Assembly (NCBI GenBank): GCA_008632985.1 | Contig: QPGO01000049.1 | Location: 310,001-374,000 of the forward strand | Direction: 5' to 3' | Origin: Psammoneis japonica | Taxonomy: Eukaryota | DNA: 64,000 nt | Shown: in pieces, positions 2,943 through 61,415 of the stretch | How positions within the stretch are numbered: the first letter of the stretch is position 1 | Layout of the letters: each line of letters opens with the position of its first letter | Notes under the pieces: generated by a model | Database searches by the model: none | The model's input: only the letters and a program-made list of their open reading frames with translations | What the model was told of the DNA's origin: nothing | Position numbers and translations under genes: made by a program

Positions 2943-4193
2943 TTAAATAGGGTCAAAGTCATCGCTAAAATTGGTCCTCTACATACGTAGAGCTCCGTAT
3001 GTGTTTGTCTGTCCATCGCCAGTTCGTGCCAACATTTAGGGGAATGAACGAGCAGGCTAGTGTCTGCATCCTACCGTGCACTTGAGCATTTATGATGAGT
3101 TGAAATTTTGTACGCACAGTTACCCCACATGCGATACATCGATGGAAAGCTGAGAGTCTGCTCATTCCGTGGGGGGGGGAATGGGGGGGTAAGCTCTGAC
3201 GGTTTTTTCGGAAGATGAGGTGTGAGTTTTGGGTGTGATCATTGAAACACATCCAATTGTTCAAACAATTGATGTTGAGCCTCATTTCTTTGATTGGCGA
3301 GCAACCGATATTGTGGAACACTTTTGACATGCTAAACACGACCTGATTTGGACCGTTGGCATTTCAATGCATTCTACAGACATGTGGGCGTGCATTGAAA
3401 CAGGTCCGGGGGTCAAAAACTCCAATGCGCGACCCTCAAGTGTTCTCAGTTTCAAAGTCATCGAAAATATCCAAAAACACGGTAAGTGATCAATCATCGT
3501 AGACGAAGCAACAATGTCTACTCCACATGTAATGTTGTAGCGCAACAAGAGACAACAACCAAGCACATGACAGCTGGCAGGCACAGTCATTGAAGAGACG
3601 GACTAATTCAATAGGAGACTTAGGCGTATATAAAAGCACAATTTCCTATGTGATTTTAGATTTTTATTTCAAATGAATACAAAAAACACGTTCGGGAGGA
3701 AACTGTTAACTGGCCAACCACCCAACGGTGCGGCTTGCCTTTTTTCGTTCCCATCCGCATGATTGGTTTCTTAAACAAAGAGCTTTTCAGTTTCCCACTC
3801 TTGATTATATCAATAATTTCAAATGTATATCAGGACATAAGAAATGCATGATGCTAATGCTTTTTTTCAATAGAGGTTCGAAATGTCCCCCATAAATGGG
3901 TTCGAAATGCTACATTAAAGGGATTGTGTCTTATTAACCCCCTCGCCTCATGGAATATTTTCAAATATTGTGCACAACGGTCGCGTTCATGCGTTGGATT
4001 TATGGGCAGAAACGAAATCGCTATCGACGCTCACAAATTCGCCGGGAAAAAACAAAACAGCGTCGGGTCGCGACAGCTATACTGTAGTATTGTGTTGTAT
4101 TGCTGTAGACATCCCTCGGCCTTGTGGTGATCAGACAAGCTCTCATAAAGCCTTTCAAGCGTGCCCACAACGCCAGGATACCCAAGACCCAAG

Positions 4194-7100: not shown

Positions 7101-7412
7101 TCTATCTCTGAGACGGCCGGCGTGGGCATCACATCGGTTGCCACAGCTGGTGCTATCGTTGCAACCGCCACAGGGGATATCAGTTTGTCTACCTCGTCCG
7201 GTGCAATCAATCTGGCCACCGTTGCTGCGTTCCCCCTTGGTGATATCACTCTGTCGGCCCCTAGTGCAAACATTGGAATTTCTGCCGGCAATAACATGCT
7301 TGTAGAAGCCCTCGCCGCCGGTGGTGCTGCTCCTCCTGTCCTTTCAATCCAAGCCCCGAATGGCCAGATGGAATTGATAGATGTTGATGGCGTACCGTTC
7401 TCTCCTTCTTAA
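4194..7412 (+). CDS. Secreted acidic repeat protein, predicted beta-helix/beta-solenoid (gp5/VgrG C-terminal-like)
   Basis: Uninterrupted ORF from ATG 4194. Signal-peptide-like MKLSPAFAFLVVTATSA, short coiled coil (WEKLHDLEARLHAVEN), then many 51-aa units made of six 8-9-residue segments (SITETATNG DITSTATAG SIIESAGD TIEETAAN NIESTSSGG SIVETAND). Confidence 0.85.
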   Translation: MKLSPAFAFLVVTATSASPHTEPKSHKRRNNFRQGNNRTFKSKKIDNCDCHLIWEKLHDLEARLHAVENCVDNDEHDISICTFGFQEKPGKTNLIGKNVDITATKGIFLEALAGNIEEAAAGDITSTSGGSIIETAKDSIIESAESGDIISTTLVGSIIESAGDTIEETAINNIESTSSGGSIIETAIGSITETATNGDITSTATAGSIIESAGDTIEEMAANNIESTSSGGSIVETANDSITERATNGDITSTANVGSIIENAGDTIEETAANNIESISLGGSIVETANDSITETAATGDITSTATAGSIIESAGDTIEETAANNVESTSLGGSIVEMANDSITETATNGDITSTANVGSIIENAGDTIEETAANNIESISLGGSIVETANDSITETAATGDITSTATAGSIIESAGDTIEETAANNIESTSSGGSIIEMANDSITETATNGDITSTANVGSIIENAGDTIEETAANNIESISLGGSIVETADDSITETAATGDITSTATAGSIIESAGDTIEETAANNIESTSLGGSIVEMANDSITETATNGDITSTANVGSIIENAGDTIEETAANNIEFISLGGSIVETANDSITETAATGDITSTATAGSIIESAGDTIEETAANNVESTSLGGSIVETANDSITETATNGDISSTATDGSIIESAGDTIVETAANDIMSTSSGGSIVKIADESITEIATNGDISSTATAGSIIESAGDTIVETAANDISSTSSAGSIVETANDSITETASTGDISSTATAGSIFEIAGDSIVETAVNDITLTSSSGSITETANDSITETATTGDITSTATAGSIIEVAGDTIEETAANDITSVSSGGSIIETANDSITEAATNGDITSTATAGSIIESAGDTIEETAANDIMSTSSGGSIVEMANDAITETASTGDITSIATAGSVIENAGTDITENADGAINENAGTDIIETAGATITENAGTNILEMAMGSISETAGVGITSVATAGAIVATATGDISLSTSSGAINLATVAAFPLGDITLSAPSANIGISAGNNMLVEALAAGGAAPPVLSIQAPNGQMELIDVDGVPFSPS
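4600..6960 (+). repeat. Coding tandem repeat, 153-bp unit with 306-bp higher-order period
   Basis: Alternative-frame ORFs recur exactly every 306 bp (4975, 5281, 5587, 5893); units are near identical. Confidence 0.9.
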
Positions 7413-30830: not shown

Positions 30831-32019
30831 ATTGGGCGGAAAATGGTTCATTGAGTGCAGAGAAGCTGCCAACAACTCAGTTGAATGAACATTGAATGCT
30901 GAATGCCGCAGCCTTGATGTTGGTGCTGACAGAGTTCAACAGGAGGATGTGAGCCGCCACAAGGCAAAAGTCAAAAAAGCGCACACCTTGTCAAGTCGTG
31001 CCGCCCCTGGGCAAGGGCCTCTGCGCAAACATTGGGCCGTGTGAAGGATGCCGAGGGGTGTGGTCTGAAAAATGAGTTGGGCATGCTCACATTTTATCTT
31101 CATCACATAACATGGGTTTGCGGCATTTGGCGAACATCAATCGTTCTGCTGCCCACATGTGAAATGCCCCAGAAATGAACTTGCGCGGAGGCCCCTGCAC
31201 CGCGACAACTCTGCACACTGTCAAACCATTTCACCGTTCAGCACCCAAATGTCACCACACAAACACCACGGCAAATTGATGCTGTTCACCTGACAGGCTG
31301 TTGTGACTGTGCCCCCTCTCTTCCTTAGAAAGCAGGGGCACAGACCATTGCCACAAGTTCTGCATGAGAATTGTGTGCCCCTGGTTTGGGGGGGAATGAA
31401 TCGGTTTTTGCAAAATGTTGAGTTGGCAAGATTCGGTGAGTCAAGTGGTGATGATGGTTCTTGCAAGAGTGTTCATGCCACACTTCTCATTCATTGTTCA
31501 TCTCCCCCCTGAAGGCAACATGTGGACAACTCAATGTCATGTGAGAAAATGCGATGGACACATCCACGTCATGAACTGTGACAATTTCATTGTGAACAAT
31601 CATCTCATCTCCCACAGAAAGCAGATTTGCTGTGCTGTGAGGCAAAACTTCAGATCAGCAATTGAACTCCCAGAGGGTTTCTGTGGACACGTCAACCAGA
31701 GCTGACAGTGTTCTTCTCCCTTGATGGCCAAGCCAGCGGGCAGCTGATGTGATCCTCAAATGCACCGGTGCGATCCTTCAAAGAAGCAATTCGAGCTTTG
31801 GCACAAACCTTGTGCAGCTGTTGGTGCATCGAACAATGGACAATGAGCAAGGGCCATTGTGCCGTTGTGATTCTGCTCCAATGTGAGTCATCATTGAAGT
31901 GGAATTTTACATTGTCGTCGCATCCTGCTCTCACAAACACTTCACATTTGCTGTCTGCCCCCTTCTTGACACACGCGTCCAAGATGCCAGATGCTGTCCA
32001 TTGAAGGTCTGGGCACCAG

Positions 32020-32370
32020 TCCATTTTGAGAGCACTCATGAACATGAATTTCGTGTTTGGAATGTTTTGTTCTTCAGCCAACTCAGCAGCTTGTTTCACC
32101 TGATTGGGGCCAAGAGACATTCCAGTCACTTGAGAATTGGGCCTGAGGTTTTTTGCAAGATGACAGGAATTTCCTCCTGCTCCACACCCATCATCCAACA
32201 CCTTTGCTGATGAGTCCATTTCTGGACTGGTGCCACCGAGTTTCATCATTTCATCTGCAAAGTCACACTTGGCCTGAATGAAATCCTTCTTCTCATGCCC
32301 TGCCCCCATCTCCTCTTTGGTGCAGCATCCAAGATGGATGTGTTTCACCCCAGCAGTGCTTAAGGATGCC
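32020..32370 (-). pseudogene. Fragment of MPBQ/MSBQ (tocopherol/plastoquinone pathway)-type SAM methyltransferase, hypermutated
   Basis: HIHLGCC...AGHEKKDFIQAKCDFADEMM...KVLDDGCGAGGNSCHLAK...VTGMSLGPNQVK matches the recalled family pattern HIHLGYY...AGY.KK.FIQAKYDF..VLDVGCG.GGTSRYLAK..VTGITLSPNQV. Confidence 0.8.
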
Positions 32371-33787
32371 ATCTTTTCCAGAGCAGTGCAGCAGCTAAAT
32401 GCACCACGGCAACTTTCAGAAGCAGATGCAGCACGGCAAGGAAGCAGAAACAAAATAAATTGAAAACAACAGCCTGATTTCAACATCTTGTTTTACTTCT
32501 GCTCGGCTGGGCTGCAGCTGTGGCACCGTTTTCTCTGATTCATTGACCAAGGACGTTTGAAAGAACACCATCACATTGATGCATTTAAGATGTGATGAGA
32601 TTGAGAAAGGAGGCTGTGAAGGTTTGATGGCCTCATCATTCCCGCACATTGCGGTCAGGATCAACTTTTTCATTGCTGCAATCAGCTTGTCAATGTCTTT
32701 CTTTGTGTGAATTGCAGATGCTGTCATTTGCAATGCTGGTGCAGGGATGGTGTGCATGTGGCCTGCTGCATGTTGACCCATCGACACCATGGCTGCTCCG
32801 TTCTTCAAACAATCTTTGCAATTGAGCCAAAAAGGGCAGTGTTTTTGTCATCATCACAGAGGTCCTCCTCTCTTCAATGACCATTCTTTGACATGAAATG
32901 GGGTCCGATGGGCCACCGCTCACATCTTCAGACTCTTTCGTGTCCTTGGGCTCATGGTTGCTTTTCCCATTGTCTCTTGACGATTGGTGCCGCCACCACC
33001 ATCGGTCTCCTCATCCTCTGCTTGCAGCACTCGCACTGGCAATGACAATGGTCGCAGCACAATCGTCGTCGTCCTCGCCCTGATCCTTGGAGGAGGAAAC
33101 GAAAACAAACTCACAACTTGATGATGACGGCATGGATGATGCACCACTCCAACCAACCAAACAACAATAAAGCTGCATCTTGTCATCATGGTTGTCTGCC
33201 GGCACCGCATTGCACAGGGTGCGTGTGTCGTACTTTCCGCAAACAGAAACGGTGTCAGTTTTGGATGCACAGTGGGGCACCCTAATTCCAATTCAGGCGA
33301 TCCGACGATTTGTACTGTGTAGTCGACCAGTCCGATGTGGCGAAGAATCACAAAGAACAAGCAAACCGGCAGGTGTCTAATTACCTAATCTTTAACGGTC
33401 TAATTGCCAAAATTTAATTCAAACGAAGCTCACGTGCTAACCGGTGAAATCTTTTCTCGGCAACCGACACTCACGGCAACTGGGATTGATTGGGGGTTGT
33501 TAGGGTCTGAACAAAAGACACGCAAAGTTCGCAAAGTTCCTCATGCTGCTGGCGATGTCGAACACTCGGATGCATGAGGGGTGATGCAAAGGATGCTGCT
33601 GTTGAAATCGTCACAAAGGTCTGCAAGATTCACTGTGGCGATGTCCCGAAAGTTGACAGGAGCAGCGAGAACAAAGCTGGCTAAGATGAGGGAGATGATG
33701 CCTCATTGTGCCAAGAGACTCCAAGCTTGCAGTTGTGTACGTCACATTTGGGAGGCAAACTGTCATTGGAAATGACAGTTGTCTTAA

Positions 33788-35728
33788 CTAGCCAGGCACA
33801 CCTCCAGTCCGAACATGTGAAACATGAAGGGGTTCCACCGAGTGTTCCAGTTGTGATTGGCCTTCCATGTTGCTCCGAGTGCCAGTTGTTCTGGAAACAG
33901 CAATTGTGGTCTCCTTCTTCAATCCAATCTTCCCTTGCTTGGCAAGGTCCTTGACAATGTAGGCAACAACAATTGTGTTGTGCAGAATGTAGCCGCTGTC
34001 GAGAAGACCACCAACCACACGCATCAGCTGTTCCAAATCTGCAGAGTGTGTCTTGCCAACAGTGTTCTGCATGCATCGAAGTTGCCATTTGCCAGCATCT
34101 GGAACGAGGACAAAGAAGTCAAGGAAGGGCTGGCTGTTGTCTTCGGGGATGAACCACTGGGCCTCATTGGATGACTTGTCCTCATCTTTGATCGCGTCTT
34201 CTGGCAAACTCTGGTTAGCGGTGACATCCTGGACTGCAGCAGGCAGATTGTAAATCTTGCCTGTTGGCCATAACACCCTTGTTTTTTTGCTTGTCGTACC
34301 CATCATAACATGTGCGGGCTGTGCCCTTTGGCCCATGACTGCATGCTGCGATGCTGCCAGATCATGACAGTGATGTAAATGTACAGCAAAGTCGGCCTCA
34401 AAAATCTCACCTGGAGCACCGTTGACAAGATGTTCCTTCATCAGCGGACAAAACTCGAAGAACTTGTTTCGTGCACCAGTGTTGCGGCCTGCTGCATTGG
34501 CCAAGTAACTGGAGGTGTACAGTGCAACTTGCCCACCATCAGCAAGGCACCTTTGAAGAGCAGAATTCACAGCCTCGCAGTGCCTGTCACCAGCAGCTAC
34601 AGTTCTGTCACCCATCCTTTTGATGATGCTTTCACATTCATCCTGGATCTCTTCTATGGTGAAGTTGAAGAACCACCGTGCATTGATTCCGCAACAGCAG
34701 AACTTGCTGTCAACCAGGTCTTCCTCTGTCACACTTGATGCATCCTCTGTGTCAAGGGTCTTGCAGACTTGTTTCTTTAGTTCTGGGTCCTGGAGACCTT
34801 TGATGTGGTCTTGTCGAGTAAAGGGGCGCATGATTTTTTCCTCCACGTTGATTGCACGTCTAGCTTCTTCTTTCTTCGCGGCTGCTCCCAGTGATGAAAC
34901 GTGAATCACACGTCTCTTGCCTCTTCTCGATTGATGACATGCCACGTCACTTGCCCAGCCACAAGCAGCGGGGCCTTGGTTGGATTGTGCTGCATCTGAA
35001 ACATCAGCAGGGGCGTCCACGATTAACACCTCAGAATTCTCAAATACATCGAGCTCGAGAATGTCCGAAAGCTGTCCAGGCAAATCTTCAAAACCACAGA
35101 CGATGCCACCCTTAAATTGAAAGACCTCCCAGCTGTCGGAATTGGATCGACGACCCACCCAAATCACATCCTCCGTTGTCCCAAGATGCTCCGCCACGGC
35201 CCAAGCCAAGTTGCTCTTACCAGTGCCGGGAGCACCAATGAACTCGATGTTGAAGTCCTCCACCCCTTCATGTGAGTCCACCAATTGGTCAAAAAGTTCC
35301 TGCATCCCTTCACGTCCACAACAGCGAACACTGTCCGAGGCGCTGGGTGTCAAGATTTTAAACTTGTTGACCGTCAGATCAATGCACTTGTGTGATTCCA
35401 CCTTGGCATCGGCACTTGCATCTCTGATTTTCCTTCTCTTCGTGTGTGGCTCTTCAACTGCCAAGTCTGTTTTAGAAGCTTTCCATTTTCCGTCCCAGAC
35501 CTTCCATCTTCCCAAAACTTTGTTTGCAAGGGCGTTCGGGAGCCCGTCCGCAGTCAGAATTTCGTGCGTGAGTGTGCCAAACGAGTCAGCATCATCGCAT
35601 CCTTTGGGTTGGAGCATTGCAGCAGCTTCGAGGGCGTCTTTTTGCCTCATGCCAAATCCGGTTGTTTCGTTGGCTAACCACACCGCCAGCTCTTCGGGAT
35701 CACCAAATGGAGGCTTGTCATCACTCAT
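33788..35728 (-). CDS. Crinkler-like protein (N-terminal header, P-loop NTPase, C-terminal restriction-endonuclease-like domain); probably decaying
   Basis: Open 646-codon frame with Walker A GAPGTGKS, LIVD, G.NARWFF, GEIFEADF and LDF...MQNTVGKTHS motifs; only 5 Tyr, none in the first ~400 aa. Confidence 0.65.
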   Translation of the reverse strand: MSDDKPPFGDPEELAVWLANETTGFGMRQKDALEAAAMLQPKGCDDADSFGTLTHEILTADGLPNALANKVLGRWKVWDGKWKASKTDLAVEEPHTKRRKIRDASADAKVESHKCIDLTVNKFKILTPSASDSVRCCGREGMQELFDQLVDSHEGVEDFNIEFIGAPGTGKSNLAWAVAEHLGTTEDVIWVGRRSNSDSWEVFQFKGGIVCGFEDLPGQLSDILELDVFENSEVLIVDAPADVSDAAQSNQGPAACGWASDVACHQSRRGKRRVIHVSSLGAAAKKEEARRAINVEEKIMRPFTRQDHIKGLQDPELKKQVCKTLDTEDASSVTEEDLVDSKFCCCGINARWFFNFTIEEIQDECESIIKRMGDRTVAAGDRHCEAVNSALQRCLADGGQVALYTSSYLANAAGRNTGARNKFFEFCPLMKEHLVNGAPGEIFEADFAVHLHHCHDLAASQHAVMGQRAQPAHVMMGTTSKKTRVLWPTGKIYNLPAAVQDVTANQSLPEDAIKDEDKSSNEAQWFIPEDNSQPFLDFFVLVPDAGKWQLRCMQNTVGKTHSADLEQLMRVVGGLLDSGYILHNTIVVAYIVKDLAKQGKIGLKKETTIAVSRTTGTRSNMEGQSQLEHSVEPLHVSHVRTGGVPG

Positions 35729-38250
35729 GGTTGATTCCAATTGGTGGTGGTGGTTGTTCCAATGTCATGACGTTCTTGCGGAATGTCCTCCTCCTTCCGA
35801 GTCAGAGCAACCGGCAATTTCAATGGAAAAAAGCTGATTGCAGCTGATTGAATTTTAATGGATGACAATGGACCGGCCACGAACGAAAGCAGGAGAATTT
35901 TCGTTTCATTGCGACCACTCAGGTTCAAGGTGGTTGGTGATTGCAGACTTTTCGTGTCAGGCCAACCCCAACCGAGCGAAAAAAGAAAATGAAAAAGACG
36001 AAACAGCTCGAAAAGCTCGAACTCACCCGGATTTTCACCCTCGACTCTTTTTCAACTCGGCCGAAACACTCTCCATCGTGAGTCTGTGCGTTGACCGTTG
36101 TCGTGTGCGCGCACACCCAAAGTCTCCACACAGACGACTCTCGCGGAAGTGAGACAGACAATGTGCCAGGGTCGCATGCAGGTGATTTGTTGCCGTGCCC
36201 TCCTGGTGTGTTTCGTGTAGAATTCTCCGTAGAAAAGTTTTGTGCGCATGTAGAAACATGCGGGGATTCCGGAGGCATCGTAACAAACCGTCCGTCTGAC
36301 TTCCGCGAGAGTCTATGAGGAGACCTTCGTGTGCGTGCGAGCGCGCGCAAAGATCGGTCGATGCACAGACTCCATGGGCACAACATCGTACGAGCGATGG
36401 TGGTGTTTGCATGACATTTGTTTGTCTTCAACATGAATGTAGAAGACAAACCACAAATTTCAGAAAAATGCACCACACATCAACATCACCCGCCCACGCC
36501 GCTCGCCATCTCAATGTCAAAACAATGTCAAAGATGTTGTCCGGAACTGACGACGACTGTTTCAGGAAACATTTGTCGGTGTCAACATAAAGCCAACTGG
36601 GAATGCTGCAACCCTTTTCACTGAACATTGGAGGTGAGTTTAAGCTGACCAAAGTGGGAAAGACCCGGGGAAGCTCGTCGTCAACCTGACTCTCGTGCCG
36701 CTCGCTCTCGTGTTTCTTCAGAATGGCATGGTTGTTTGCAACGTTGAGCGTCATGACAAAGTCGGTGATGCCACATGCAACCATCTGTTGCTCCAAACGT
36801 TTTGTGCTGACTTTGAGACCGAGAGGGCGACAAGAACAAACAAGAACAATGTCCAAGATGTCGCGGCGGTGAGTTTGTCTCTTCTCAGTTGAAGTGAATT
36901 CGGCGCTTTCTCCTTGTCCCAGTTTTCAATGATCTCACCAACCTTTGCATCACTTGTTTGTTCTCTTACATTCTCTGATGTTGACAGCAACGCGTGTCTT
37001 GAATTTGCTCTCGTCGCTGGGCCAATTCTTCGTGTCCAACCGCATTTGCTGCCGACACGTGTTGCTGCAGAACAGTCAAAACCGCCCTTTCAACATCAAC
37101 GGGTGGGTGCAATGACATTCATTTAAGGGTTTCACCTGGTGCCCCCTTTCAAAGGAATGAGCAGAACTGAGCAAGGTCGATTTGCCTCTGACAAATTCTG
37201 GAGAAAGGTGCACCTGCAGCTGTTCGCGACAACATCTTCTTCAATTTCTTCCTGTAGCTAAATTAATTTTGACAAGTCTGCAAAATTAATTTAGCTACTG
37301 ATTGGTGGTTTTCAAGAACGGGGACGCATCGGCTCATTTTCCGTCATCGTTTGTCGGCTTCTCTCGTGTTTCAGTGCGAGGCGCACCATGCAGTCGAACT
37401 AGTCAAGTTCTTGCGAACACCAAATTTATTATCTTTTTAAATTCTATATAAAGTTGATTATGGAATGGTTTCTACGTTCTACGGGATGTTGTGCCCATAG
37501 ACTCACGATGGAGAGTGCGGCCGAAACGAAAAAAGAGTCCGACTCTTTTTTCACAAACCCGGAAGTGTGAAAAAAGAGAAAAGAGTGATGTGGGCCGCAT
37601 GCTGTCATACAATTCGTACATGCGTCTTGGTTTACGTAGGACACCAGTAAAGCAATCCAAAGTTCGCCTCACGCACCGCATCATCAAGTCGCCATGGCGG
37701 TCTGTGATTGTTTTTGACGACTTCTTTCAATGTCATGACTGTATAAGTAACACCAATTGATAATTTGAAATAGATATGATATATCTCTTGAAGGAACTGG
37801 TGAAGTATGTAGCAGTTCTTCTACAACAGACCTTTTGTCTTCAAATGATGTTGCCGGTCTTGATGTGCATCATAGAAAGTCGACACATAAGGTCCCTAAA
37901 GTAGATCTTTATGACACAGAAATAACCATACTGACTAATTTAGATACGACTTATTCAATGGGGCTATTCTTATGTTGTTTGATTTTAGATTAGGGGCTCG
38001 AAATGGCCCGAGAAGTGTACAAAAACTTTCCACTTGACAACCACTTAAGTCATCCCATTAGCCTGTTGTATTTGCACTGAACAAAAAAAGAAATAGCACC
38101 CACCGACTAAGAAAAAAATGGAGGTTCTAATGGTGTTATTCTCATTGTCATAAGGTAGAACTTCGATGCCGTTATGGTCGTCATCTTCACTGTCGTGTGA
38201 GGCCTCTCGCTTTGCTTATCATCAGCATGCCCAAGACACCCGGATATTTA

Positions 38251-50390: not shown

Positions 50391-52900
50391 GCATGCGACT
50401 GTCATGTGCATGTCTGTAATTGCACATTGTGTGTGTCAATCGCACCACATTCATGCATGCGCACGAAGGACAGAACGATCACACAGAGTTGATTGGATGT
50501 CGAAAATTGCAAATGCAATCGATTGACAATGTTGACATCTTGCGTGTCAATGGCAATTGCACCCAGATGATCTGTTGTCACAATTGCATTCTCCGAAAGG
50601 CCTTTTGTCTGCAGAAACAGCACAGAAGCTTTGGGCCATTGAGAACTCATTCGGAGAAACCAAAAATCACAGAACAAAATTTAATCTCACAATTTCCACT
50701 TTTTGCACTTTGCTCTGCTTTTGTTTGTGCTTGTTCTTCAAGCACAGTGCACCAGAGCACGTCTGGAACATGTCTGCCCATGGTGCACGGGTGCAAAAAG
50801 TGCTGTTTTTGCATCATTTGTTTTGAGCCGCTCACCATCGCAAGTCTGTGTGTCAACCAACATGCGCATGCTTTGCACACCCCATGCCCACCCACGCACA
50901 GAACAAACAGGCATCAGGAATGAACAGGAACCAGACAAAGCATGGACAAATTGCAAAAAGCATGGGGGAACTTTCTCACAGATTCTATGAGACAAATGGG
51001 TGACAGACAGACAAGTGTGACAGAAAAGGCCAATTTTTGTCATCCTCATGCTTTTTGTGCCACATTCGATGCTGACAATGGCGTGCTGTTGTCAATGCTG
51101 TTGACTGGTTTTTGTGTGACGAAACGCATCATGTGTGTCTTGTGGCAAGTGACAAGCATGGATGCAAGCCCATGTTGACCCTGGGTGCAGTGTTTGTGGT
51201 TAATTTCAGGGCATTGTTGTCACTGGATTTTTTTGCAATTTTCTGTGTGAATCATGCACAGCAAAAATGTGGGACATTGATGACAGTGGAGTCATCTTGA
51301 AATGACTGATTGGAGCCACCAGACAGACACCAGTGAGCCAAATGTTGTGCATCAGCTGCACTTGGCTGTCATGTTTGTGTTGTTGCTGCTGCACATGCCT
51401 GAAATCAGTGCAGATGTTGTTTTCATCCCCACATGGTTGCCATTGTTGCTTGTCATGTTGTGTCACATTTTCATGCATCTCGGTTGCATTTTTCGAATCA
51501 ACCTCATCTTTTTTTTTGAGGTTGTGTGCAGCTTGCAATTCTTGCATAAACCTTGTGCCAGCAAAATGCCAGGAAACTGGCATCTGTTGCCTGTTCATTC
51601 TTTCTGCAGCTGCCCCCGGTCAAGTCATGGACTCTCACACAGGAATCTCAAAATCCGCAAGAGCAACGGGGCACATTTCCCACCACACACATGACCCTGG
51701 TGCATTGGCTGTCTGAATTCTCTGAGAGTCAGTCTGTCAAGTGATGGGCTGGTGGGGTGTGCAAAGCATGTGAGTGTCGTCATGGAGAGTGGTTTTCAGT
51801 TTTTTCAGTTTGTTTTGCGTTGCCTGGGTGCCGCACACGGCATCGCCACTTGCTGTCTGTGCAGTGATTTCTGTCATGATTTGCACTTTTGTCTGTCCCT
51901 GCAAGCAGTCTGCCACACCACGGGTTGGCTGGCACTGGCATTGTTGATTTGGTGGGGAGTCTCTAGAGCCAGCTGCTGGCTGAAAAAGTCTGCTCATCAG
52001 TGCGTTTGGGGAATTTGCCAGTGCAACTCTGTTCAGGGTTCTTAAATTGCAGAATTTTCTGTCATGGTCAGTTCACAAAAAATTGTTACATTGCGAAGAA
52101 AGCGCAAGTGCACCATCATAAAAAAATGCGATTGCACTGATTTGGCAATCACACTGCAATCATGTTGTGATGCTGCCTCCTCCCGGCAGGGGCGTGCCCC
52201 GTGCGCCCTCCGCACAGGAGCGCCTGCATGATCTGGGTAAATTTCCAGCATCAATTTGGACCTTGATGGCAACCTCAAAGACACTGTGTAAGATGACACT
52301 GGAAACATGCATGGAAAACTGGCAGTGCATTCACTCGTGCTGCAGTTGTTTCTTTTGCACTGCCTTGTCCCAAGATGCAATTGTGGCAAGGAGAGGCAAA
52401 ATGAGGGGCGGCCATTGCTTCTTTCCATCTCTCTTGTTTCTCTTTTCTCAAGAGGTGCAATGTGGAAACGAGACAGTGCCAGTGGCCAGAGACTGCGTGG
52501 TGTGCAAAAAGAGCGGCGATGGTGTGGTGCCTCCGAAAAATGTGACGTGCATGCGTGACGCAAGATTCCACATTCCGAATTCTCACATTTGGCTCTCGAA
52601 AAGAGCTTGCACAATGATTGACAGACTCTTTCAGCACTGAAATGGACAGCTTGCCGAGTTCATTTTTGGTGTGCCAGTGCAAAGTTGTGCAGATCTGCAC
52701 ACACAGGTTTCTATGTGCATTTGCACTGAAATGGCAGTTGGCCCATCAGCTCATTCAAATTTGTGCAGCAACCCACCCGTGCATGCCGCACTTGCAATGG
52801 TGATGACACAACAGCATTGTTTGCACTCTGATGCTGCCTTTTCACTTCACATCTCCCTTGCCATGGAGTTTAAGAATGTAACTGACAATCGGTTCAAGAA

Positions 52901-53243
52901 AATGGCAGGTTGTGATCGGGTTGCAGGGGTTTTGTTTTGCCATGAAAAGATGCCGTTGGACCCATCAACATGACACACAATGGTCAGTGTTGACATTGAG
53001 ACGACATGTTGACCCCAATTGAAGCATCTTTGGCAACATTGTGGCACTGGCATGCAGTGTGGAAGACTCAGCAATGGCAGGTCGTGACCGAGTTACAGGG
53101 GTTTTGTTTCGCCATAAAAAGATGCCGTTGGACCCATCAACATGACGTGCAATGGTCGGTGTTGGAATTGCAACAATGCACTGATCCCATTTGAAGCATC
53201 CTCAGTGGTGTTGTGATGTTGGCATTCTACATGGAAGACTCAG
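52901..53243. repeat. Tandem repeat, 172-bp unit, two clear copies plus a degenerate continuation
   Basis: aatggcaggt.gtga...aaaagatgccgttggacccatcaacatgac starts at 52901 and 53073. Confidence 0.85.
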
Positions 53244-54312
53244 TGGTTCTCAATGTGGTGGCATGATGGTGGAGTTGGCTGGAGGCCAAGGAGGACTTAC
53301 CCTGAGTGTGTTTCTGTGGATGCAAGAACCGCAAATGATGCATTGGCCCCATTGGAAGTTACTTTAGCAGCACTGTGGCAAATGTGACCGGTGTGGATGA
53401 CTCATCAGAGCTCAAATTGGTGGCATGACAGTGAATTTAGCCTGATCCCAAGGAGGGCTTGTTCTGAAAAGGTTGCTCATCCAGGGACTGTGACTGGCTG
53501 CTTTGTCGTCCTTTTCACCATGCAGCAGAAGTTTAGAGGGATCTGCATTGTGGGCACAAACAAGTGATGTTTCCAAAAAGATTTGTGGTTGTAGACATCA
53601 ACCAGTCACATGACAAATCCATGACTGAAATAAAATGCTGGAGAGTTGTCAAGTCGGCGGCGTTGTCATCTTGTTGGACGAGCTAGAAGTCTCATCATTT
53701 GCTCTCCTACGGCAGAGAGCATTGATTGAATTGAACATCAACTTGATGTGGGAGACAACAGTCACATTGGTGGAGGAGTTGGCTGTGGTTGTCATTTGAG
53801 AATGATTCAAAGTGGGTGACGCAGGCCTCTGTTACGACCCAACAACATGCAAACAGCTGTGCAGTCTATGTTGAAGCTTCTGACCAGCTTTGAAGGCAAT
53901 TCATTTTGTCTGTCGACAGACCGACCATCTGTGTGTTGTGTGTGACAATGATGTTTTGGCATTTTTGCTTTACATTCACAGTGTGTCAGCAACGCCATTC
54001 GCTCTCTTTGTGCTTTGTGTTGTTCTTGTGTTGGAGCTCGCAGAGTTCGTGATGTTCGCACGCATGCATGAGAAACTGTCGCATGTGGAAACACATTGAA
54101 TTTCTGCTGGCATGCTGTCCTCGAAAAGTCCAACGGACGAGAGGGGCCTGTGACCGTTGGTCATCGTCACCCCACAGAAAAAACCGTTGAAAATGACCCT
54201 CTGACCTCGGGACGATTGTTTTCCCCGTTGCACCTCTCATTCTTCCGAAGAGCAAAGCAACAACTAGACAGTTTTAATCGCTGTCTCGAGGCTGAGGACA
54301 CCTTCAGCCACA

Positions 54313-56559
54313 TTGTTTGTTGCATTTGCTCGCAGGGACACTGCATTTGTTGTGGCAAACGTGCCACCACCACCAGGAGCAGGACAAGGACTGCCACCAG
54401 TGGCGAACCCAAATGCGGGAGGTCAACCGGCACAAGCTGCGGCACCTCACGCACACGTTGCACCGCAACCAGGGGCAACCCAACCAGCCCCACCAGTTCA
54501 TCTGGTCCCAGGAGGAGCTGGAGCACCGCCCCCACCGGCACAGCCAGTCGCTGCGCCACCCCAACAGCCACCGATGGTGCCCTTGCCAATGCCAGTCATC
54601 AACACATGCCAGGCCTGCTGCTCCACGATCAACAATGATCCGCACGGCAGTGAATGCGCCGACCCGATGTTGGATTTTGCAGCGATTGTAAATGGCAACG
54701 CAAGGCACGGGGCGAACGCACTTGCGGAACGAGTTGCGTCGGCCTCGACGCACAACATGCCCATGGCCATGGCACTCCATTGCCGCGACCCCAACGCAAA
54801 CGCGGTGGATCCGGGCCGCATCCAAATCTGCCATCGCATCACTCAGCACCCAACCACGGTCGTGGGGCCACCCCAGCCATGGGATGGTCAGAAGTTTGCG
54901 ATCGTTGGTGACCTGCACCAAGGACAGCACACCGTTGTGACTTTCCCGGATGTGCATTTTGCGTTGGCCGCACCAGGGACTTGGGTTCCTGCTGATGCAG
55001 CATCAGCGACCCATGTCACCGCTGCGCCCGATGGGTTACACCCGGCTGTGGCAGCGCACAACGCGGACTCGGAGGAGGTGCGGACGAGGGGGGCCATGTT
55101 TGTGCCTTTCGATTTAGTCAAGCTGCTCCTGCCAGAGCCGCTGACCCCTGAGGAGGCACACACTCGCGCATGTGGAGCGCTTGACGCAGCGAACAAAGTG
55201 GCTGATTGCCAGGCACTTCTGGATTTTCTTCGCGTCGCATGTGTTGTGACGCAAGTTAATGGCGAGGAGTCGGTGGTTTGCACGGAGTGGCCCGCTCTCC
55301 CGCAACCGCCTGACAAGCACCTGATTCGTTTTTTTGACCAACGCGTGCATCACGACCTCCCTGGATTTAAAACACAGGCTGCGCCGGGACCGCAGTTCCA
55401 GCCGGTTATTCACGCTGTCGACAACCTCACCGCGGAACAATGGCAACAGCGTTTGGACACCCAAGCCCGCCAGCAGGCTGCCGATCACGGAAAGACACCA
55501 GTGCAGTTCTACGGAGAACATGGTGTCACAAAACGTTTGGCTGCTGCACGCAAGACTGGACGGATCACTGCAGTGCAGAATGCTGTGGATGAGCAACGCC
55601 AGGCACAGAATGTGTGCTTTGAGGTTCCAATCTCAGTTGGCATGGTTGCCAAGCTCGTTCAACTCACATTGGCCGGACATGATAAAGATGACCTCACCCA
55701 AGGTGTCAATCCCTTCATTTTTGGACTCACCACTCCTCAACAGGCGGAACAGACAGCACACCGTGCGGCCATGTGCCGCCAGATTCACGGTGGAATGGGC
55801 ACGCCCTCCCTGTCCGACACTGTGGTCCTTGAAGCACCGGACGACGCGAAGGTTGCTGCCACTGTGCAGGCGGTTCAACATTCACTTGATGGACTCCGGG
55901 TGGTCCTGTCTGCGGCCTCAGGCGCCACCCACCTGGTCGTCCATTACCTCATGGACCTTCGCCGCTCCTTGGATGTTTGCGCAAACGATCTTGCACTGCA
56001 GATGATGCACTGCCCTGCACTGCCTGCAGATTTCCAGTGCTGTGTCCAGATCGAAATCCATCATTGGTTTAAAGATCAAGAATCCATGCATAATCCCGTT
56101 CCTTTCACGCCCAAGAATGTCATCTACGAGGCGGCCAAGGGTGCCATGAATTGGCAGCGTCCGCTGCCGATTGCCGTTCGACCTCAAGGCCCACCAACAT
56201 GCGGCCCGACGGGACCGCTTCAGCATCCGGGATCAACTCAAGCACCTGCACCCTCACCTGCTGGGCAAGCTCAGACTCCGGGCGACAATTCCATTGTTTG
56301 CAACGAAAACTACGATGACCGTTTTTCTGCTGTTCGTGACCGCCCAAACGTGCGCTCTCGTGAAGTCAAGCAGCGCTGTGCTCGCAACAACATTGCCTTG
56401 CCCGTTGACTTGAATGGCGCTGCCCGTTGCCTCCCCTGCCACATTGAGGGGCAATGCAACACCAATTGTGGTTCCCGCAATGACCATCACGGATGCCACA
56501 CCGATGCAAAGCAGGCTTCGCTCCTCGAGTGGGCCACGGAGCATTGGAAAACTGAGTGA
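54313..56559 (+). CDS. ORF1 gag-like protein of the YR retrotransposon (mutated)
   Basis: 748-codon frame with Pro/Ala-rich N-terminus and C-terminal Cys/His finger CLPCHIEGQCNTNCGSRNDH; true start unclear. Confidence 0.75.
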   Translation: MFVAFARRDTAFVVANVPPPPGAGQGLPPVANPNAGGQPAQAAAPHAHVAPQPGATQPAPPVHLVPGGAGAPPPPAQPVAAPPQQPPMVPLPMPVINTCQACCSTINNDPHGSECADPMLDFAAIVNGNARHGANALAERVASASTHNMPMAMALHCRDPNANAVDPGRIQICHRITQHPTTVVGPPQPWDGQKFAIVGDLHQGQHTVVTFPDVHFALAAPGTWVPADAASATHVTAAPDGLHPAVAAHNADSEEVRTRGAMFVPFDLVKLLLPEPLTPEEAHTRACGALDAANKVADCQALLDFLRVACVVTQVNGEESVVCTEWPALPQPPDKHLIRFFDQRVHHDLPGFKTQAAPGPQFQPVIHAVDNLTAEQWQQRLDTQARQQAADHGKTPVQFYGEHGVTKRLAAARKTGRITAVQNAVDEQRQAQNVCFEVPISVGMVAKLVQLTLAGHDKDDLTQGVNPFIFGLTTPQQAEQTAHRAAMCRQIHGGMGTPSLSDTVVLEAPDDAKVAATVQAVQHSLDGLRVVLSAASGATHLVVHYLMDLRRSLDVCANDLALQMMHCPALPADFQCCVQIEIHHWFKDQESMHNPVPFTPKNVIYEAAKGAMNWQRPLPIAVRPQGPPTCGPTGPLQHPGSTQAPAPSPAGQAQTPGDNSIVCNENYDDRFSAVRDRPNVRSREVKQRCARNNIALPVDLNGAARCLPCHIEGQCNTNCGSRNDHHGCHTDAKQASLLEWATEHWKTE

Positions 56560-56730
56560 GAATTCGGCAGCGGCATCGGTTCGGGGACCGACCACCGAGA
56601 GCCTTTTCATCTGGAGCCGGCGACGGCACCAGACCCGCCACCCCCACAGGCGGAGAATCTGTGTGCTCAGCAGAGCCATGGTCGTCCCACTCTTCGTGGG
56701 CAAACCATTGCAAACTCTGAGCTGGATAAA

Positions 56731-58750
56731 TTGGGCAAGCAAATTCTTAAGGATGCTCTTGCACTTCGTCAAAAAGGTCTCAGTTGCCTCCTTCGCCATC
56801 GCAGGAAGAGAGGAGACTGGGGTCAGCTCCGCAAGGCCGCAGGGCATCCAGCCCACAGGCTCTTGTGCCATTGCCGAACACGGGGAGCGCCCATCACGGT
56901 CGCCGATGCCCCGTGGACGGCTGAAGAGCTAGAAGCAAGTGTCATCAGGGGGCCACACAAGTCCACTTGTGAATGCATCGATTTTTTGCGCGAAGACATG
57001 CACGACTGCGTTGAAAAAGGTTTTTGGGTTGTGCCACCGTATGAGGAAGTGAAGAACGTTCCTGGTCTGCGCATTAGTCCGATGGGCGTTGTACCCCAAC
57101 ATGCCAGACGGCCCCGTCCCATTGTTGATTGCTCCCACTTTGGGGTCAATCAAGCCACACAGCCAAACGCCCACATGGGGGCAATGCAATTCGGCCGGAC
57201 ATTGGACCGTTTGCTTCGGCGCATCCTCCTCGCCAACCCGAAAAAGGGGCGAGTCTATCTCATGAAGATCGACCTCTCGGATGGCTTCTACAGGGTTTTC
57301 TTGTCTGAAGATCGTGCACCTTTGTTGGGCGTTTCTTTCCCACACTTGCCAGGCGAGCCACGCCTCGTGGCAACTCCGACATGTCTGCCCATGGGATGGA
57401 CTAATTCGCCACCAATCTTCAGTGCAGGTACAGAGACCGCGGCTGACTTGTCAAATCAGGCCTTGCTCCATAATGTCACAGCACCGCCACACCGATTGGA
57501 GCGACTCGCTGAGAGCCATCCACCGACACATCAACCGACACCGCCACCGGACCCGGCGCTCTCCGTCCCCGTTCCAGCCCAATCTGACCCACACCTCAAC
57601 CACTCTAAACGTCGGCGTCTAGCATGCATCGACGTTTATGTTGACGACTTCATCGGTGCAGCCCAGGGCGATGCGACCGCCCGCCGCAACGTGCACCGAG
57701 TTGTCATGCATGCCATCGACGACATCTTTCGCCCTGCCGATTCCCACGACTCGCCCACTCGCAAGGAGCCCACATCCGTCAAAAAGCTCCGCAAGGGCGA
57801 TGCAACGTGGACCACGCAGAAGGAGGTCCTTGGTTGGTTGATCGACACTCAGTCGATGACCTTGCGGCTAACACCACGCCGCCGAGAACGCCTTCACCAA
57901 ACACTGTGCCAGGACTTTCCCCGGAGCCGCCGCCACCCACTGTCCTCGATCACCAGAAGCTCCTGGGCGAATTGCGTTTGCTCGCCATTGCCTTGCCCGG
58001 AGCTCGAGGACTTTTCTCCGTTCTACAGGAGAATCTCCACCACGCTACACCCGATGCACGCCTCCGGCTCACGGAGAACGTGCACACCATTCTCGATGAT
58101 TTTCGAGACCTCTGTGCGACACTGGATGCACGCCCCACCCACATTCAAGAGCCAGCCCCGTTGGAACCCACTGTTGGGGGTTGTCACGACGCAGCCGGCC
58201 ATGGTGCCGGGGGCGTCCTGCTGCCAACTCCCACAGCTGTGCCACGAGCCACTCAACTCCGCACTGGCACCGGACGTGTCTGCTCTCACACACGCCTGGG
58301 CCCCATTGTGTGGCGCATGCCTTTTCCCAAGGACATGACTGCCAGCCTTGGCACCTGCGAGAATCCCAAGGGTCCCATCACCAACACCGACCTTGAGCTC
58401 GCGGGCAGCTTCATTCAGTCCTGCACCTTAGCGGATTGCTGTGACATCAGGGAACAAACTTTCCTTTCCCACACCGACAACCTCGGCACCATGTTTCAGC
58501 AACGCAAAGGAGCCAGCACGACCACAAAACCAGCCTCCCATCTCCTCCGGGGCCAAGCCCACCACCAACGCCATCACCGTTGTGTTGGCCTCCACGACCA
58601 CATCCCCGGCCCTCTCAACGGCGCAGCAGACAATGCTTCTCGCATGCAACGCCTCCCTGACTCTGATTTCTTGCACCATTTTGACTCTGCTCACCCACAG
58701 ATCTCCTCCTGGCGAATGTGGACCCCACCACCCGCGCTGCGTTCATTCGT
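56731..58750 (+). pseudogene. Reverse transcriptase / RNase H of the YR retrotransposon, frameshifted near 57930
   Basis: RISPMGVVPQ..RRPRPIVD, KIDLSDGFYR, LPMGWTNSPP, YVDDFIG and KEVLGW motifs; continues in the 57807 frame with DAAGHGAGGV, ITNTDLELAG, TDN and ADNASR. Confidence 0.88.
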
Positions 58751-59863
58751 GATCTCAGTGCTGTGCAGCATGCCATTGCCCACAGCGTCACTGCTTCAAG
58801 ATCCTCCACCGCCGATTCCCACTGGAGTCTCTGGTCCAACTTCTGCACCCAACTGGCCCTTGACCCACTCCTCGAAGACGTTTCCGACCCCGTCATCTAC
58901 CTTCAAGTCTTCCTGCATCGGTGCCGAACTGGCGCCATCACCCCCCGCGGAAATCCCATCCGCACACGCACCGCTGAGGATGCCGCACATTCAGTTGGGC
59001 AAACGTTTGCGGCAATGGGGACCCCAGACCCCCGACACACATCCCAAGGCCAGTTGGACTTCCGCCTTAGCCGACAAATTCGCTGTCACAAGAAAGAGGA
59101 TCCTCCACCCGACCGGGTCAAACCAGTCCCTGTTGCCATCCTCTTTTGGATCCTCCATGCCGCCGCAATCACACCCCACACAGGAACAAAAGCCATTGCC
59201 AGCATGATTGCGCTGGCTCACTTTTTTCTCCTTCGGCCTGGCGAATGCACCGCCACCCCATCCGACACCACCCCTTTCCGCCTGGCTGACGCACGGCTCT
59301 CCTTGGGCGGTGTTTACCTTGACATTTGGACAGCCACCGATGCCCAACTCGATGCCGCCACCTTCGCAACGCTTGCGTTCACTGATCAAAAGAACGGCGT
59401 CCACGGCGAAGTCATCGGTTTAGGCTGCTCCGGCCATCCCCAACTTTGCCCTGTCCTTGCTCTCGTTGAGTGCATCAAGCACCTCTGCAATCATGGAGCG
59501 CTCCCAGACGCCCCACTGGGAGTTTGTTTTGCCAATCATCAATGGCATTGTGTTTCACTGGCTGACATCTCCTCCGTGCTGTGCACCGCCGTCATTGCCA
59601 TTGGCCCTGCCAACCTGGGTTTCAACCCCTCCGACATTTCGGCCCGTTGTCTCCGCGCCGCCGGTGCCATGGCATTGCTTTGCGCCCACGTTGACACCGA
59701 CGTCATCTGGCTCTTGGGCCGGTGGCGATCAGATGAGATGCTTCGTCACCTTCATCTCCAGGCAGAACCCATCATGCGCCACTTCGCCAGACGCATGTTG
59801 GAAGGTGGAGATTTCGTCCTCCACCCAAACGCGGAGGTTCCCATTCATCTGGAACCCCCGTGA
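58718..59863 (+). CDS. Tyrosine recombinase of the YR retrotransposon; catalytic Tyr position reads His
   Basis: FFLLRPGEC, QKNG, CPV.A, ARCLRAAGA and LGRWRSDEMLRHLH motifs; overlaps the RNase H frame, as is typical of DIRS-order elements. Confidence 0.88.
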   Translation: MDPTTRAAFIRDLSAVQHAIAHSVTASRSSTADSHWSLWSNFCTQLALDPLLEDVSDPVIYLQVFLHRCRTGAITPRGNPIRTRTAEDAAHSVGQTFAAMGTPDPRHTSQGQLDFRLSRQIRCHKKEDPPPDRVKPVPVAILFWILHAAAITPHTGTKAIASMIALAHFFLLRPGECTATPSDTTPFRLADARLSLGGVYLDIWTATDAQLDAATFATLAFTDQKNGVHGEVIGLGCSGHPQLCPVLALVECIKHLCNHGALPDAPLGVCFANHQWHCVSLADISSVLCTAVIAIGPANLGFNPSDISARCLRAAGAMALLCAHVDTDVIWLLGRWRSDEMLRHLHLQAEPIMRHFARRMLEGGDFVLHPNAEVPIHLEPP

Positions 59864-60627
59864 TTCACCACCAGCCCGCCAGCCGGGCCCACCCACCCAC
59901 CCACCCAAGACTCGTGGCCCATTCCGACTCCACGTTGTTGTTGGGAGGCGCTGGCGGCCCTGCCGTCCAGCTTGGGATTTGGAGAGGCGTCATGTGCACC
60001 AGCGAAGCACTCTCCACTCCTGACCACCTGTCCCACTTGCTGCCCAGCCTCCCAATCCGGGTCGACCGAAGGACGAACGAGAAAAGCGGTGGCAGCCGCT
60101 GTCCTCAAAAAGTCCAACGGACGAGAGGGGCCTGTGACCGTTGGTCATCGTCACCCTGCAGAAAAAACCGTTGAAGATGACCCTCTGACCTCGGGATGAT
60201 TGTTTTCCCCGTTGCACCTCTCATTCTTCCGAAGAGCAAAGCAACAACTAGATGGTTTTAATCGCTCCCACCTCTCCCGCCCTCTGGCCCTGCCATCCAG
60301 CTTGGGATTTGGAGAGGCGTCATGTGCACTAGCAAAGCACTCTCCACTCCTAACCACCTGTCCCACTTGCTGCCTAGCCTCCCAATCCGGGTCGACCGAA
60401 GGACGAACGAGAAAAGCGGCGGCAGCCGCCAAAAATGAAACTCGACAAGCTGTCCATGCATTCTACGTAGCCCTAAACATTATAATACACATGATGATTC
60501 TTCAGCCAGGCTGGAGACTTCCCCCGATTGTTCATCAACTCGGTTGGTTGTTCAGAGTTGAAAAAAAACCTGGTGATTGTTTGACGATGCGAGTGGAGTG
60601 TCTGGCGCTATTTTCCACAACATCAAC

Positions 60628-61415
60628 ATGAGTGATCCTTTATCTTTTTCTTCCAGCATTGTCAGGGGAGATTTCGATCGAGTCCGAACCTTCCTCGAAC
60701 ACCGAGTCGTCTCGCTACCCTTTCACGCCACTTTATCTCGCCGTCGCACACTACGAAAATTGCAACAGCAACAATGGCAACATTGTCGAGCTCTTGTTGG
60801 AACATGGAGCTGATGTGAATAAACGAAATTTTGATAGTTCGAAATTTACACCGCTCCATGGCGCTGTTTTGTTTTCAGGGTACCAGCTTCGGTATCGCAG
60901 TTGTTGTTACAAGTATCGCACAATGCGCAGGTAGACTCTAGAGACAGCATGAATCGCACTCCTTTGCATTATGCTATGGTTTCCTATGGCGACAGAGGGC
61001 CTGTAGTAAGGTCGTTGCTACAGAATGGAGCCAACATTGATGCCATGGATAAAGACGGATGTACACCGCTCATTTTGCGTGCCGCTTAGGAAGGGAATGC
61101 ATGGCAGACATACTGTCGAAACAAGGCGCCAATATCAACGCCACAGACTCCAAAGGATTGTTGCCAATTCATCATGCGATTTCCAGGGGTGCAGACTCTA
61201 TTGTATTGCTCTTGATGAAAGCTCACTCGGATGATCTGTTGAAGGTTGACGACGTTCATCCGTGTCTGTGGGCGCACGCGCTTGCGACGGTCGGACACAA
61301 GACCGAACCGAAAAGACTTTCCTTGTCGTTTTCATTGCTTCGGGAAAAGCCTGATTTATTTGGGCACAAATCGAACACAAGGAAACGAAAGCATCCTGAT
61401 CGATTTGTTCCGTAG
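60628..61415 (+). pseudogene. Ankyrin-repeat gene with frameshifts and an in-frame stop
   Basis: TPLYLAV...LLEHGADVN, TPLHGA, TPLHYA...LLQNGANID and QGANIN..GLLPIHHA are spread across several frames; TAG at 61087-61089. Confidence 0.75.

Follow-up and report, generated by a model that had tools for sequence, protein, structure and literature searches.

How can a retrotransposon be nearly free of TA dinucleotides and still rich in CG, and what becomes of a tyrosine recombinase encoded in such DNA? The question is raised by a 64,000 nt stretch of the diatom Psammoneis japonica (contig QPGO01000049.1), here called the window, to which all positions refer. One host gene of the window is nearest to a Bacillariophyta cluster. 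At 54116-60429 the window carries a Ngaro-type tyrosine-recombinase retrotransposon, a membership that rests on structure, no tree having been built. A preliminary description, made from the letters of the window, had placed the element at 54114..59863; the real extent begins after a GC overlap and takes in repeats (B1-A2-B2) beyond 59863. On the sequence evidence, the TA loss in this element and its copies is very probably the work of a mutator that acts on DNA at TpA, after insertion and targeted to repeats.

TA and CG content

In 300 base shuffles of 54114-59863 TA numbers 249 on average (minimum 202). The interval itself contains 37, and 398 CG against 482 expected. The corresponding observed/expected (o/e) ratios, 0.15 for TA and 0.81 for CG, bear out the initial remark that TA is rare in a still CG-rich element, and AA/TT is not depleted (o/e 1.2). 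Generally, stretches of gene DNA in the window, where TA o/e is about 0.35-0.7, take turns with repeat blocks, where it is near 0.05-0.2; host genes of the window lie at 0.35-0.56. TA loss tracks the element: copies whose flanks are TA-normal remain depleted within their own ends, and in the window TA content is normal again from about 60400. In 34 copies in the genome TA o/e is 0.02-0.26. Outside the genome it is 0.37-0.86 (median 0.58) at 80 metagenome loci, none of which is a TA-depleted relative; these were chosen by similarity to an intact profile, from contigs that collapse repeats.

A control is provided by a piece of a host gene captured within a repeat (32018-32375), which can be aligned to a TA-normal copy at locus L042. 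All 16 parent TA are changed (8 to TG, 8 to CA), while 7 of 10 parent CG have become TG or CA and 2 are kept. The captured gene is presumably methyltransferase-like, to judge by its motif. The repeat that carries the piece spans 31001-32492 and is TA-stripped relative to L042.

Rates and age series

The window copy has five siblings at 83-91% identity (C159, C2, C181, C217 and C332, the last two 99.8% alike). Against C159 it shows 634 differences, 543 of them transitions; 225 set CG against TG or CA, and at 83 sites one copy reads TG where the other reads CA. Other transitions, of the TT/CT type, amount to 2-7% pairwise. A mixture model of 1296 sites in five copies (the window copy and four siblings) yields TA losses of 0.82-0.91 and CG losses of 0.25-0.33, and a model with a common rate for the two is rejected (2 delta lnL 302). 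The inferred source has about 157 TA and 473 CG sites in the compared columns, with a TA-to-TG share of 0.51. Across the 29 copies used for rate models, from seven families with at least three fetched copies each, inferred source TA content is 0.024-0.032 per site. The sources were thus not TA-poor.

The hazard at TA exceeds that at CG 5-7.6-fold in the window element's family and 4.4-14.7-fold over the 29 copies, in agreement with the early suggestion that TpA conversion outpaces CpG decay. When loss per copy is followed with age, TA is ahead throughout the series: TA loss is 0.42-0.50 at CG loss of 0.04-0.07, and up to 0.93 at 0.31. The other option then offered, that the two processes are independent, is not supported, as the losses rise together across the 29 copies (Spearman 0.84); locally, the correlation of TA and CG residuals is weak (r 0.18, Spearman p 0.07).

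A separate clock comes from the split direct repeats of these elements, assumed to be identical at insertion. Using 59 repeat pairs from 33 copies (9384 positions; L003 and L033, 99% duplicates of L004 and L032, were left out, as were L040 and one non-terminal pair), per-base hazards are 0.42 at TA, 0.087 at CG and 0.0025 for other transitions. In the window copy, A1 and A2 differ at 7 positions, 6 of them TA/CG-type steps, and B1 and B2 at 6, all TA or CG steps, which leaves one difference outside such steps in 313 bp. By this measure the element is young, as it had been called; by CpG loss it is 24th of 29 from the youngest. The log-log slope of TA on CG loss, with four-base context allowed for, is 0.61 (s.e. 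0.06), and four recent duplicate pairs have 35 TA changes vs 82 expected. Either the process is front-loaded or sites vary beyond what the model allows.

Two further groups of copies deserve mention. L008 and L013 are 96.9% alike inside the element only. Because their TA conversions are nearly all common (6 TG/CA mismatches) and 104 CG sites differ, this is a case of an already converted copy being recopied, by trans-mobilisation or gene conversion. In the youngest family (L024, L030, L037) all three copies contain assembly gaps, and less-mutated copies may be absent from the assembly.

Site preference, strands and targeting

The share of TA converted to TG is 0.49-0.57 across the seven families, i.e. 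both strands are about equally affected. Adjacent converted sites are on the same strand in a fraction of 0.495-0.511 at all distances to 1.6 kb, and no strand-coordinated runs are seen over that range; conversion is distributive, one site at a time. Context has a marked effect, TA retention being 0.03 in ATAT, 0.06 in ATAC and 0.14 in GTAC, up to 0.45 in CTAG and 0.54 in TTAA. In the strand model a 3' C or T is favoured 2.7-3.1 times over a 3' A, and a 5' A about twice over other bases. That the process acts on chromosomal DNA is indicated by the equality of strands, by its reach into non-retro DNA, and by split repeats and 99% duplicate copies that still differ at TA. All affected sequences examined are repeats.

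Two frames elsewhere in the window may be mentioned here. One, open over 658 aa and rich in Cys and His (33788-35764, negative strand), has a TA o/e of about 0.2 and is possibly a multicopy host gene undergoing TA loss. The other (4149-7412, 1087 aa) consists of tandem repeats rich in T, A, S, I and E, and is normal in TA and CG despite its repetitiveness.

Tyrosine codons, stops and reading frames

Since all Tyr codons have the form TAY, which is the preferred context, tyrosine is the most exposed residue. This follows from the code and does not require any design aimed at tyrosine enzymes. The last 381 aa of the third open reading frame (ORF3) hold 2 Tyr, against a median of 7 in outside homologs. 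As first described, RPGEY has become RPGEC (TGC at 59246-59248) and LRYLH has become LRHLH (CAC at 59747-59749). Tyr is the usual residue at both, occurring in 115 of 120 outside homologs in RPGEY and in 118 of 120 at the LRYLH position, where 79 of the 80 metagenome loci keep it. His at the latter is not ancestral within the family: the catalytic codon is CAC in the window copy and in C217/C332, and TGC in C159 and C2, two products of one TAC. A contig of sequencing run X1 is identical to 59311-59774, with zero differences; X1 contigs represent one sample, possibly the assembly's own, and the match excludes a base-calling slip only.

All five conserved tyrosines of the recombinase are replaced in the window copy, by Cys at 58922, 59246 and 59525 and by His at 59087 and 59747. 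The Cre fold of a homolog model and the position suggest that the residue at 59747 was the catalytic Tyr. At Arg columns 7 codons are altered in the CpG-decay pattern, with catalytic-motif Arg 59234 and 59654 kept. A census of 37 copies (13,109 codons) counts 38 Tyr, 66 Cys, 50 His and 19 other residues in the five columns. The catalytic Tyr is kept in 7 of 34 copies and RPGEY in 3, both together in none; in 20 further loci added for the catalytic codon it is kept in 0. No intact copy (catalytic and RPGEY Tyr) is present among the 54 copies covering that codon, young copies having assembly gaps, and when the genome was searched for sequence able to encode an intact RPGEY-T, 3 places were found, a lower bound, all without the catalytic Tyr. 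In pol, compared with 70 of 120 outside homologs, 18 of 202 residues are kept in six conserved Tyr columns. CGN-type codons at conserved Arg columns are still CGN in 725 of 933 cases in pol and 523 of 652 in the recombinase.

Stop codons show the same bias. Premature recombinase stops number 15 in the 13,109 codons, and all are TGA, with no TAA or TAG. ORF1 ends in TGA in four copies, the window's among them, and C217/C332 have CAA at that place, as expected if a TAA has been erased. The proposal that Tyr codons are destroyed and TAA/TAG stops erased is therefore upheld. A hand count over 111 matches gives 78 TGA, 5 TAA and 3 TAG; TAA counts of the pol census were excluded, being mostly gap columns. 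Two related proposals are not supported. Frames do not simply stay open while missense changes disable the enzymes, as pol appears frameshifted in the window copy, by one base absent near 57937 that is present in all four covering siblings, all five siblings have indels of their own, and 10 of the 15 premature stops, at Arg columns, come from CpG decay of Arg codons. Vulnerability of the reverse transcriptase YxDD motif is likewise not general here: ORF2 of the window copy keeps YVDD (57637-57648) and 1 of its 6 conserved Tyr, CVDD occurs in 2 of 4 distinct copies, and outside homologs have FVDD in 50 and YVDD in 13 of 70 sequences.

One outside metagenome recombinase of the 120 (P0003) has 4 of 5 conserved Tyr as Cys or His and 0 of 20 conserved Arg in the CpG pattern. 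Seen as protein, and less than 83% like any fetched copy, it faintly suggests that some other organism undergoes the process too.

Proposed mechanism

A Ngaro-type retrotransposon of ordinary TA content integrated here at a GC overlap, to judge by its structure through recombination. After insertion a host process very probably turned A:T to G:C at TpA on either strand, site by site; the changes favour TAY (ATAY best), are confined to repeat DNA and have reached every copy examined. TpA conversion runs 5-15 times faster than CpG decay, which proceeds in the same DNA, these repeats presumably being CpG-methylated like the transposons of other diatoms, where DNMT5 is implicated (PMC9998398). Changes of Tyr to Cys or His have removed the recombinase nucleophile in most copies, and probably activity with it, and CpG decay and indels complete the ruin of the element.

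As to the chemistry, there is about an even chance that it is deamination of DNA adenine by an enzyme of the TadA/ADAT fold steered to silenced chromatin. Adenine deamination is ranked first because engineered TadA gives A-to-G at TA, with TadA8e variants causing such changes genome-wide at TA motifs according to one report (PMC13225742), and because ADAT2-like and TadA-like genes are present in the genome, as expected of a housekeeping set. Also observed was a deaminase domain in frame with a 2OG-Fe(II) dioxygenase (L059:313-1785, negative strand). The C5 DNA methyltransferase family has 27 matches (L144-L153), several clustered on C297, C10 and C301 and some with stops.

Several points weigh against this account. 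The enzymes named are candidates: a deaminase search of the genome returned 9 matches, of housekeeping types and with no expansion. TadA-type enzymes act on single strands (PMC13225742), which is hard to square with the lack of strand-coordinated runs. The correlation of TA and CG loss across copies would also be given by a shared repair pathway. The outside metagenome set is biased toward intact sequence, and the rate estimates presume a single source per family, whereas substructure exists (private other changes of 0.3-5.9%) and may raise apparent CG loss in older families. For the window copy itself, the pol frameshift would be disabling even without Tyr loss. Defence as the selected function is putative.

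Alternative explanations

TpA in repeats could instead bear a mark prone to mispairing or deamination, much like 5-methylcytosine at CpG; the mark would be either N6-methyladenine or an oxidised thymine. The palindromic target, the equality of strands, the lack of strand coordination and the age trend common with CpG decay would all fit, and yet this is rather unlikely: the per-base rate is roughly fivefold that at CpG, the apparent front-loading described above is unlike a steady chemical clock, and no writer enzyme has been identified. Searches of the genome for Tet/JBP and MT-A70 gave no match, and since the controls were equally silent they are uninformative. Error-prone repair is a weaker candidate still. 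Mismatches from deamination of 5-methylcytosine would trigger low-fidelity patch resynthesis that mutates nearby TA; an error spectrum at WA/TW is that of a polymerase-eta-like enzyme. TA retention is indeed lower beside mutated CG in all seven families, copy age being uncorrected in that comparison, and the local residual correlation points the same way. Retention is, however, nearly flat with distance to CG (0.20-0.27 up to 25 bp), AA/TT is not depleted and TT/CT differences are few, TA loss is several-fold above CG loss, and strand-coordinated patches are lacking, which together make this explanation improbable.

Editing of RNA or cDNA during retrotransposition, by an ADAR- or APOBEC-like enzyme, would account for front-loading and for a TG share that in some families slightly exceeds one half (up to 0.57), and ADAR has a 5' U preference (cited in bioRxiv 10.64898/2026.01.13.699255). 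It is very hard to credit, given equal strands without same-strand runs, TA differences between split repeats and between 99% duplicates, and the involvement of a terminal inverted repeat (TIR) element and of the captured host-gene piece. That the family was TA-poor with His from the start, that TA was purged by selection, or that the assembly is in error can be set aside almost entirely. Diatom genes are mildly TA-poor (0.35-0.56), but original TA-poverty and assembly error are refuted by differing outcomes at one site, the normal TA of the inferred source, the X1 contigs that reproduce the sequence, and the fate of all 16 TA in the captured piece.

Structure, genes and insertion site of the element

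The features of the element and its surroundings are collected in Table 1. Its split direct repeats follow the order A1-[ORFs]-B1-A2-B2, with the internal repeats downstream of the recombinase, and A/B pairs are found in most of the 33 copies as well. Ends and gene order agree with the first impression of a structurally complete element; the pol frameshift and the absence from ORF1 of 54 bases near 55533, relative to siblings, do not.

Table 1. Coordinates of the element, its insertion target and the captured control piece in the window
Feature	Position	Strand	Basis or remark
Captured host-gene piece within repeat (control)	32018..32375	-	aligned to TA-normal copy in L042
Left part of 1.5-kb non-autonomous TIR element, insertion target	52642..54115	.	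TA o/e 0.17, CG 0.39
2-base GC overlap, left junction	54114..54115	+	empty-site comparison with L048-L051
Split direct repeat A1	54116..54282	+	96% to A2 over 169 nt
ORF1, gag-like by position	54268..56559	+	763 aa stop to stop
ORF2, reverse transcriptase and RNase H	56560..59207	+	RVT_1 and homolog model
ORF3, tyrosine recombinase	58685..59863	+	homolog alignment, Cre-like model
CAC at putative catalytic tyrosine position	59747..59749	+	homolog alignment
Split direct repeat B1, 0 TA left	59956..60099	+	96% to B2 over 144 nt
Split direct repeat A2	60098..60266	+	repeat comparison
Split direct repeat B2, element right end, 3 TA left	60286..60429	+	repeat comparison
Right end and TIR of host element	60430..60457	.	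inverted arms, empty-site comparison; normal TA content resumes

ORF1 has no Pfam family above the cut-off and is labelled gag from its position, the gene order being as in PMC8547959. ORF2 has an RVT_1 match just under the cut-off (E 1.7e-6). Its outside homologs are single ORFs of 805 or more aa, the only named ones being from a diatom, and a homolog model aligns over about 720 columns with retroviral reverse transcriptase chains including RNase H. This model is unfolded past residue about 710 of 817, which suggests no further folded domain, and a methyltransferase domain, the feature that parts PAT from Ngaro/Viper, gave no Pfam match in 9 homologs. For ORF3, of whose 120 outside homologs 101 were aligned, Pfam and PDB sequence searches gave no recombinase match. 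The predicted structure of its outside homolog P0002 (pLDDT 92.8) matches Cre (E 3.6e-7), XerA and an integron integrase.

The element lies within a TIR element with inverted arms at 52642-52667 and 60432-60457, of which at least 8 other near-full copies occur among 69 matches. In three of four fetched copies the sequence passes from the insertion point directly to the right TIR. The empty site has a single GC, the element has one at each end, and there is no target-site duplication, as would be expected of recombinase-mediated integration. The 1.5-kb TIR family has many copies with TA o/e of 0.15-0.39 (window 52642-60457; L048-L051). In the window's copy 27-32 CG sites are lost vs 4-7 in four others, perhaps owing to the nested insertion.

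To the right of the element, frames with normal TA at 60632-61415 resemble what we take to be a broken ankyrin-repeat gene, and a run X1 contig has 20 extra bases at 60700. X1 contigs unique to the element have depths of 25-36, against 47 for the flank near 60700; because they are shallower than the flank, a single homolog may carry the insertion or its variants.

Significance and relation to known systems

Raw-divergence ages of such copies would be inflated many-fold, and converted copies can resemble open, plausible genes. The Tyr-to-Cys/His scars could allow the process to be recognised in other genomes from protein alone, and the age series and TAY preference supply measurable predictions for finding the enzyme, which would be a natural one that edits adenine in chromatin.

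In the literature searched, which left most subscription papers outside its coverage, no report of TpA-directed mutation in diatoms was found, and a targeted chromosomal A:T to G:C mutator appears in a single preprint, which concerns one alga. Its authors, Mettrop et al. (bioRxiv 10.64898/2026.01.13.699255), describe in Bigelowiella natans a de novo TpA to TpG/CpA hypermutation of integrated DNA of nucleocytoplasmic large DNA viruses and virophages; TA-poor sequences are enriched in reverse transcriptase and DDE domains, and ADAT2 is proposed, untried there. Common to both are A:T to G:C transitions at TpA, on both strands and confined to invading or repeated DNA. The B. natans process, sharply regional, was seen de novo in a rhizarian in two viral inserts, one of them single-copy. 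Here, known from sequence alone, the host is a stramenopile, transposons are near saturation, a captured host gene is hit, and CpG decay runs concurrently; copies of different age form a series, TAY is preferred, and proteins are affected. The available text of the preprint does not contain the words diatom, CpG, retrotransposon, tyrosine or context. A second, distant lineage with nearly saturated transposons would make the process a candidate for a widespread genome defence. Tentatively, and with the odds against it, diatoms and chlorarachniophytes could share a defence by adenine editing or TpA marking, acting early on new insertions and sitewise on double-stranded chromatin, which here removes the catalytic Tyr of a whole superfamily, tyrosine-nucleophile transposons surviving via escaping copies.

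In structure the element agrees with Ngaro elements of the order DIRS as set out in PMC4157794 and PMC8547959: A1-[ORFs]-B1A2B2, about 6.3 kb, ORF1, reverse transcriptase-RNase H and an overlapping tyrosine recombinase in place of an integrase, with no folded domain past RNase H. It departs from them in a recombinase motif RxLR where HxxR is expected and in a recombinase to which Pfam is blind. Ngaro-type structure is homoplastic (PMC4157794).

Decay of CpG in DNMT5-methylated diatom transposons (PMC9998398) shares with the TpA process the same DNA, a palindromic target, strand symmetry and the products TG and CA; unlike it, CpG decay cannot remove TA and is about 5 times slower per base. The guide-independent off-targets of TadA8e base editors (PMC13225742) are similar in being genome-wide A-to-G/T-to-C changes with a TA-motif preference, but that enzyme is engineered and not repeat-targeted, and shows merely that the fold can yield the spectrum.

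Already known are the order of the element and, from a single report, the kind of mutation. The novelty lies in the lineage, in the extent to which a transposon superfamily is affected, which is nearly complete, and in an age series that can be set against CpG decay; the rule for sequence context and the lack of strand runs are also new. The process would be a mirror of fungal repeat-induced point mutation, which is likewise a dinucleotide-specific transition hypermutation confined to repeats that inactivates transposons and duplicated gene pieces. Repeat-induced point mutation changes C to T and generates TpA; here TpA is removed rather than enriched, without strand-coordinated runs.

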